From: a virus
Lineage: Duplodnaviria; Heunggongvirae; Uroviricota; Caudoviricetes
IMG/VR virus record: IMGVR_UViG_2695420412_000001
Reading direction: 5' to 3' (one strand)
Length of the DNA: 8,756 nucleotides
In this document: positions 8,033 through 8,740 of the stretch, piece after piece
Position numbering within the stretch: the stretch's first letter is position 1
Layout of the letters: each line of letters starts with the position of its first letter
Notes under the pieces: generated by a model
Seen by the model: the letters and a program-made list of their open reading frames with translations, nothing else
Database searches by the model: none
Told to the model about the DNA's origin: nothing
Translations under genes and position numbers: made by a program

Positions 8033-8740
8033 ATGATTCACTACCACGGTGGGCCTATTACTCCTGATACGTGCGCAATGAGAGCATGGAAAGGGCGACA
8101 TGCGTTTATCAGTTTTGCGCATTCAGGCCAGATCAATCTCGCGGCTGAATACTGTCAGTCGTTCGCGCTGGACAACGGTGCATTCACCGCCTGGAAAGCA
8201 GCTGGCAAAAACAAAATCGACTGGAGCGATTACTACGAGTTTGTTGCTCGCTGGAAGAATCACCCAGGATTCGATTTTGCCATTATCCCCGATGTTATTG
8301 ATGGCGGAGAGGAGGAAAATGATGCGCTTCTGAATGAGTGGCCTCACGGAAAACTAGCTGGCGTTCCAGTGTGGCACATGAATGAAAGTGACGAGCGATT
8401 TATTCATTTGTGCAATGAGTTTCCGCGAGTGGCTATCGGTAGTTGTGGCGACTATGACGTAAAGCGCCCAACTCTTGCGGTAGCCAGAATGAAAGACCTG
8501 ATTCGTCACATTGTTGATGGGCATGGTCAGCCGGTTACGAAACTACATGGATTGCGCATGTTAAATCCGCAGATATTCACAAAATTACCCTTAGCCAGCG
8601 CAGATAGTACGAACGTCGCTCGAAACATCGGTATTGATAAAGCCTGGTCTGGGGCTTATGCACCTGCTGTCACGAACGGTGCAATAGTGATCCACACCCA
8701 ACGCCTGAAATCAGATCCAGGGGGTAATCTGCTCTCCTGA
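8033..8740 (+). CDS. Hypothetical protein, 235 aa, unknown function
   Basis: ATG at 8033 preceded by strong SD aaggagag, 1 nt after the Ea22-like stop. Globular-looking composition with no obvious transmembrane segment. No family confidently recognised. The ORF-track entry 7991..8740 starts inside the upstream gene. Confidence 0.6.
   Translation: MIHYHGGPITPDTCAMRAWKGRHAFISFAHSGQINLAAEYCQSFALDNGAFTAWKAAGKNKIDWSDYYEFVARWKNHPGFDFAIIPDVIDGGEEENDALLNEWPHGKLAGVPVWHMNESDERFIHLCNEFPRVAIGSCGDYDVKRPTLAVARMKDLIRHIVDGHGQPVTKLHGLRMLNPQIFTKLPLASADSTNVARNIGIDKAWSGAYAPAVTNGAIVIHTQRLKSDPGGNLLS

Follow-up and report, generated by a model that had tools for sequence, protein, structure and literature searches.

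An open reading frame (ORF) at positions 8033-8740 of the phage record IMGVR_UViG_2695420412_000001 (Caudoviricetes) is best explained as an allele of a prophage singleton dpdA gene that has been disrupted by the insertion sequence (IS) IS100. The whole stretch of 8,756 nucleotides that was analysed, hereafter the window, corresponds to the complete draft contig CYFU01000087.1 of assembly GCA_001286305.1. We put the probability of this reading at roughly 0.8, and it includes the prediction that the intact protein of 251 amino acids (aa) is a minimal (beta/alpha)8 barrel of the tRNA-guanine transglycosylase (TGT) superfamily that exchanges bases in DNA. The gene is a disrupted member of a published family, the singleton DpdAs, and IS100 is well known; no new system is described here.

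The junction with IS100

Alignment to intact alleles divides the ORF into two parts, namely codons 1-211 of a native gene and 24 codons, followed by a stop codon, that belong to IS100 (Table 1). In the Stx1a_EH2115 phage and in 113 complete Escherichia coli genomes, the stretch 7400-8667 is 99.0-99.8% identical to the window, with the identity ending exactly at 8667. The intact genomes continue the gene for 40 codons further, giving a native gene of 756 nt and a 251-aa protein (WP_000582234.1) that RefSeq lists as 'hypothetical protein'. Over the 211 native residues the sole difference from that protein is L180Q, and Q is also found at position 180 in other family members. Downstream of the junction the window matches the left end of IS100 at 89/89 positions, a stretch matched in 2,721 of 5,426 RefSeq E. 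coli genomes; the identical matches listed are annotated 'istA: IS21-like element IS100 family transposase'. The same end sequence is found in phage GER2, where it is followed by transposases of 340 aa and 259 aa (an IstA/IstB pair), and the match of GER2 to the ORF is confined to aa 211-235, beside these IS transposases. The expected 3′ remnant of the interrupted gene carries AAGTAAAGAGACACGCGCAGC.

A scan against PHROGs splits the ORF likewise, assigning residues 1-212 to phrog_887 and residues 212-235 to an unrelated family, phrog_21758. With E = 1.1e-7, the 24 residues encoded by IS100 align to the last 24 columns of phrog_21758 ('unknown function'), a family that may at least partly consist of ORFs that read into IS100 ends in phage genomes.

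Table 1. Features at and around the ORF, with coordinates in the window.
Feature	Position	Strand	Details	Basis
Ead/Ea22-like gene	7624-8031	+	135 aa	PF13935, phrog_1667, RefSeq 'ead/Ea22-like family protein'
Shine-Dalgarno aaggagag	8021-8028	+	4 nt 5′ of the ATG, against the upstream stop at 8029-8031	direct reading
Chimeric ORF	8033-8740	+	ATG at 8033, TGA at 8738-8740, 235 codons	direct reading
5′ part of singleton dpdA-like gene	8033-8667	+	codons 1-211 plus 2 nt	phrog_887, DNA identity to intact alleles
Retained codon of D47	8171-8173	+		
Retained codon of D87	8291-8293	+		
Retained codon of H172	8546-8548	+		
Retained codon of D191	8603-8605	+		
IS100-derived ORF tail	8668-8740	+	24 codons (VTNGAIVIHTQRLKSDPGGNLLS, past the junction codon) plus TGA	homology break
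IS100 (IS21 family) left terminus	8668-8756	+	begins TGTCACGAACGG; the contig stops 89 bp into the element	
Hairpin, 9-bp stem	8731-8751	+	GCUCUCCUG/CAGGAGAGC	over the chimeric ORF stop and the istA Shine-Dalgarno
istA (IS100 transposase) start codon	8754-8756	+	ATG	RefSeq istA annotation; GER2 continuation

To judge from the contigs that share it, the IS100 insertion is real and has been inherited. The identical chimeric protein lies at the contig ends of two other drafts, L006 (GCA_966507045.1) and L008 (GCA_001277535.1), which are 99.2% identical to the window over 4496-8756 (from cIII to the IS) and differ from it in their immunity, N and repressor regions. All three contigs with the junction stop inside IS100; the break falls there because the element is repeated. 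Since three drafts with differing immunity regions share one junction, the insertion must have outlasted module exchange. An assembly artefact was considered and rejected because the same junction occurs in three assemblies. That the C-terminus arose by mosaic recombination with a different phage gene was likewise rejected, as the sequence is that of the IS100 terminus. The left-hand junction was absent from all complete E. coli genomes searched.

The 57 bases at 8700-8756 are predicted to fold with -22 kcal/mol (z = -3.3 against shuffles), and the hairpin listed in Table 1 could damp istA translation from phage pL read-through transcripts.

At the 5′ end, the longest mechanical ORF starts at 7991 and spans 249 aa. 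This start was rejected, since homologues all begin MIH(Y/F)HGGP and the true start is therefore at 8033. The stop codon of the Ead/Ea22-like gene ends one base 5′ of that ATG, and the two genes are translationally coupled. The strong Shine-Dalgarno and tight coupling given in the preliminary description of this DNA are both present, as is the motif FALDNGAF that it placed near residue 45, which occupies residues 44-51.

Family membership, conserved residues and predicted fold

The native part of the ORF (aa 1-212) matches phrog_887, 'queuine tRNA-ribosyltransferase', with E = 1.6e-94. At E <= 1e-3, the homologues number 825 cluster representatives out of 1.8 billion; by both results the ORF is well beyond a chance reading frame. 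Native homologues are 246-256 aa long. A tblastn search of phage genomes matched 113 records, several of them annotated 'queuine tRNA-ribosyltransferase', with identities to the ORF of 88% for SPN3UB and relatives, 67% for SfI, 61% for Vibrio phages, 39% for HK106 and 37% for Salmonella phage 7-11. The proteins of SPN3UB, SfI, HK106 and 7-11 are all present in Supplementary Data 1 of Hutinet et al. 2019 (PMC6884629), among the 76 phages that encode DpdA without genes for the synthesis of 7-cyano-7-deazaguanine (preQ0) or archaeosine base (G+). In that study these 'singleton' DpdAs cluster apart from the others and are confined to gamma-proteobacterial phages (PMC6884629).

The link to an experimentally characterised enzyme comes from the DpdA of phage CAjan, deletion of which abolishes 2′-deoxy-preQ0 (dPreQ0) (PMC6884629). 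Comparison of a profile of 49 family members with CAjan DpdA using hhalign gave a probability of 94.1% and E = 1.3e-7 over 149 columns at 25% identity, pairing LDNGAF with LDSGAF, KLHG with KLHA and SADST with SCDSS. Searches with cellular TGTs were negative at the sequence level, as detailed below, and the placement in the TGT superfamily therefore rests on the bridge through CAjan DpdA together with the fold.

Four residues stand out among 66 diverse full-length representatives, with D47, D87 and D191 conserved in 97% and H172 in 100%. D47, within FALDNGAF and the putative counterpart of the Asp in the TGT motif DSGGF, aligns with the D of CAjan LDSGAF in both hhalign and MAFFT, D191 (SADST) with the Asp of CAjan SCDSS, and H172 (KLHGLR) with CAjan KLHA. 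For D87 (IPDVI), the candidate equivalent of the base-recognition Asp D130 of bacterial DpdA, the two methods differ, as MAFFT pairs it with a CAjan Asp that hhalign puts three residues later. The conserved His corresponds to H196 of 9g and is absent in DpdA2 (PMC6884629); conservation of H172 thus places the family with the DpdA1 type and not with DpdA2. C14 and C127 are near-invariant in close relatives only and not family-wide. No conserved Cys/His cluster was found in the family, and the C-terminus of CAjan DpdA likewise lacks one.

Modelling predicts a TGT-like (beta/alpha)8 barrel. For the intact orthologue P0001, AlphaFold2 gave a model with eight beta/alpha units, a predicted local distance difference test (pLDDT) score of 79.3 and a predicted template modelling (pTM) score of 0.81. 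In bacterial DpdA the general acid/base D95 ends strand 3 and the nucleophile D256 ends strand 8 (Gedara et al. 2023, PMC10164549), and in the model D47 and D191 occupy the matching places, ending strand 3 and strand 8 respectively. Within a viral structure library, the named matches at E <= 1e-3 were all phage 'queuine tRNA-ribosyltransferases'. A Foldseek search against the PDB returned no significant match.

Taken together, these data bear out the tentative hint of a TGT- or DpdA-like enzyme that had been drawn from FALDNGAF alone, since its Asp aligns with that of CAjan LDSGAF and the PHROG assignment, the Hutinet list and the modelled fold concur. The TGT-like barrel that had been put forward as a possible fold is seen both in the AlphaFold2 model and in the viral library matches. 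Conserved aspartates were also found as anticipated (D47, D87 and D191), whereas the zinc-site residues sought with them were not. The gene is not, as had been said of it, unrecognised, given that its family was already catalogued in 2019.

Proposed function and fate of the truncated copy

For the intact gene we infer a DNA substrate, a preQ0 donor and an anti-restriction role, and for the window copy a loss of function through truncation. The intact protein is predicted, from its homologues phage DpdA1 and bacterial DpdA, to act on double-stranded phage DNA and put a 7-deazaguanine base in place of guanine. The predicted reaction is a double displacement in which D191 would attack C1′, guanine would leave and a covalent enzyme-DNA intermediate would form, to be resolved by the 7-deazaguanine. 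D47 would serve as the general acid/base, with D87 and H172 probably reading the base. No FolE, QueD, QueE or QueC is encoded among the genes of the window. As the phage is without preQ0 synthesis genes, the donor base (preQ0 or a derivative) would be host-derived, supplied by the host queuosine pathway. E. coli possesses such a pathway, and tgt and queA were seen in it. The likely purpose would be the shielding of phage DNA from restriction, which is a documented role of DNA modifications of this kind (PMC6884629).

The genomic context of some relatives agrees with a role in DNA or deazaguanine metabolism. A homologue in Caulobacter phage DMCA (5705-6726 of locus L011, 38% identical) starts on the final base of a QueD-like gene of 98 aa, and the homologue in the Pseudomonas phage Epa33 adjoins a DNA C5-methylase gene. 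The QueD-like neighbour in DMCA is a '6-carboxytetrahydropterin synthase', and this is a rare physical link of a singleton-type DpdA to a deazaguanine-pathway gene.

The complete catalytic domain extends through residues ~231-235, and the window copy keeps native sequence up to residue 211 only. Of full-length members, 98% have residues 212-230, and among the 66 representatives R217 is conserved in 74% and E226 in 82%. The conserved residues R217, R224, I225 and E226 all lie in the lost segment; close relatives show little or no variation at S213-R217 and E223-E226. In the model, the helix at 214-227 is the last helix, following strand 8, and in the window copy it is replaced by IS100-encoded residues. 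Judged from this comparison, the truncated product is most likely inactive or unstable, making the gene a pseudogene or at best the source of a crippled enzyme. Loss of dpdA can be advantageous where host glycosylases target dPreQ0 DNA (bioRxiv 10.1101/2025.10.29.685425), which we mention as context and not as evidence in the present case.

A number of observations weigh against the reading of the ORF as a disrupted DNA-modifying transglycosylase. At the sequence level, Pfam (0 families even at E = 10) and NCBIfam gave no match for the ORF or for the intact orthologue. Searches of PDB sequences, by phmmer with the ORF and by hmmsearch with the family profile, retrieved no TGT, returning only chance matches to a designed repeat protein and a nucleoside phosphorylase, and in hhalign the family and E. 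coli Tgt scored a probability of 1%, which indicates no relationship. Confidence in the model falls to 60-69 across residues 191-230. In terms of truncation, D47, D87, H172 and D191 all survive it, and rare natural homologues of 205-206 aa exist (P0073 and P0105, one of which lies on a 206-kb contig). As for activity, phage 7-11 (37% identical), the only gamma-proteobacterial singleton tested, carried 2′-deoxy-7-amido-7-deazaguanosine (dADG) at 0.02% of G, the singleton mycobacteriophage Orion carried none, and the authors of that work themselves raise the functional divergence of singletons (PMC6884629). Nothing relevant was found in the literature on experiments with the DpdA of lambdoid or temperate enterobacterial phages, or of BTP1.

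The alternatives differ in which of these observations they draw upon. The short homologues and the survival of all four residues 5′ of the junction would suit a chimeric 235-aa protein that is still an active transglycosylase, with IS100 having swapped a dispensable C-terminal tail. Its frame is open for 24 codons past the junction behind a strong Shine-Dalgarno, and the single substitution relative to intact alleles, L180Q, brings in a residue seen elsewhere in the family. We regard an active chimera as unlikely nonetheless, because the segment it lacks is all but universal in full-length members and holds R217, R224, I225 and E226, and because losing the helix after strand 8 would be expected to destabilise a (beta/alpha)8 barrel. 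Quite unlikely, in our estimate, is a protein that keeps the DpdA/TGT fold and does not modify DNA at all, acting on tRNA, handling protein-linked deazaguanine in the manner of Cap10, or countering 7-deazaguanine-based defences of the host.

A more specific form of that idea, which we hold to be very improbable, is that the solitary DpdA-like proteins, of ~250 aa, found in temperate enterobacterial phages are a functionally diverged minimal TGT barrel, are not DNA preQ0 insertases and are structurally closest to Cap10. The structural match is indeed slightly better to Cap10 than to DpdA, by a margin too small to build on. Were such divergence true, these proteins would have another substrate or would interfere with host Dpd, type IV CBASS (cyclic oligonucleotide-based antiphage signalling system) or QatABCD, and the repeatedly inherited IS100 knockout would then reflect selection against the gene in lysogens. 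Finally, the preliminary description had framed the gene as intact, with a complete and soluble product of 235 aa whose family was unplaced. An uninterrupted frame of 235 codons with a good Shine-Dalgarno does exist, and the silence of Pfam and NCBIfam fits an unplaced family; to this extent the 235-aa gene stands. It is not a native complete gene, however, as codons 212-235 and the stop come from IS100. The 3′ 73 nt are IS100 sequence, so that the junction alignment refutes this framing, native homologues are longer than 235 aa and the family is placed by PHROGs, the literature and the fold; we consider it almost certainly wrong. The disrupted singleton dpdA remains our preferred reading.

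Gene neighbourhood and comparison with known systems

The window carries a lambdoid early region oriented as pL is transcribed. Its genes run O and cII (minus strand), cro-like, cI-like repressor, N, cIII, kil, gam, bet and exo, after which come DUF1317, DUF1382, a 93-aa protein, a TraR/DksA zinc finger, the Ead/Ea22-like gene and the ORF. A PADLOC scan of the ORF and its intact orthologue gave zero matches.

Compared with intact relatives, the dpdA-like gene is near, rather than at, the distal end of the early-left operon to which it had been assigned, as those relatives have ~1.5 kb more of small genes before xis/int. One such relative, the prophage of E. coli 2018-18.25PC (4634-8166 of locus L005), has the order dpdA-like gene, gene fragment, theta pseudogene, two small ORFs, xis and int. 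The theta pseudogene is a pseudogenised homologue of DNA polymerase III theta, and the prophage adjoins ybhC, which is the neighbourhood of lambda attB.

Other features of the window were seen in passing. A 134-aa gene at 2291-2695 (+) overlaps the stop codon of the cI-like repressor gene at the position of lambda's rexA/rexB. It has a hydrophobic, signal-like N-terminus, matches phrog_2651 (unknown function) and had no PADLOC match; it is a candidate lysogen-expressed moron. Within the pL operon and on its opposite strand, a 164-aa gene at 3363-3857 (-) lies between N and a DUF2528 gene, with a coiled-coil-like middle and a C-terminal CxxC...CxxC; it matches phrog_1244 (unknown function) and also had no PADLOC match. 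A terminator-like hairpin followed by a T-run is found at 7330-7344 (+), between the gene for the 93-aa protein (7026-7307) and the TraR/DksA gene, and the number of such terminator-like hairpins in the window is not above the expectation from shuffled sequence.

The window adds one IS-inactivated allele to a family that is intact in >100 complete E. coli genomes. What novelty is left concerns how solitary DpdAs of temperate phages may work biochemically, and the small structural preference for Cap10 over DpdA. The RefSeq name 'hypothetical protein', together with the lack of a Pfam or NCBIfam model, leaves a gap in annotation, so that a probable DNA-modification enzyme goes unseen in many enterobacterial prophages. 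Moreover, before an ORF that enters a contig end is called a complete gene, it should be examined for an IS junction.

Of the systems with which the gene can be compared, the tRNA-guanine transglycosylases proper (bacterial Tgt, archaeal ArcTGT and eukaryotic QTRT1/2; PF01702) show no sequence-level match, and the phage protein is without their zinc subdomain and their C-terminal RNA-binding domains. Cap10 of type IV CBASS (PDB 9NTN; 10% sequence identity) belongs to a defence operon in which its partners are a CD-NTase and the QueC-like Cap9. Neither a CD-NTase nor Cap9 is encoded in the window, and the neighbours there and in related loci are lambdoid early-left genes. Bacterial DpdA, from the Dpd restriction-modification system (S. 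Montevideo, PDB 7UI4; solved chain of 413 residues), requires DpdB and ATP, and contains a structural Zn site along with the large insertion Ins8 (PMC10164549). In the phage protein, by contrast, a beta8/alpha8 loop of <= ~20 residues replaces Ins8, there is no Cys cluster and no DpdB is found nearby.

With the phage DpdA1 enzymes (CAjan gp35 and 9g DpdA), for which preQ0 insertion into DNA has been shown experimentally, the Asp of LDxGAF, the His of KLH, the nucleophile Asp of xDSx and the barrel core all align. CAjan DpdA differs in being 306 aa long, with longer N- and C-terminal extensions, and in lying within a folE-queD-queE-queC cluster, whereas members of the window family are solitary and would depend on the host for any substrate. 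With regard to IS100, the 89 bp at the window end are identical, including the istA start; the window holds these first 89 bp only, and includes neither the rest of IS100 nor the target duplication nor what is left of the gene on the 3′ side.

The closest counterparts are the singleton DpdAs of Hutinet group 3 (SPN3UB YP_007011024, SfI YP_009147480, HK106 YP_007151699 and 7-11 YP_004782407), which are of the same family, ~250 aa long and likewise without a phage-encoded preQ0 pathway. In HK106 and SfI the gene is likewise found in the early-left region near xis/int, the HK106 copy just before xis/int, while in SPN3UB it is located in the nin region instead. What sets the window copy apart from all of these is that it is cut after codon 211 and carries a foreign tail of 24 aa.
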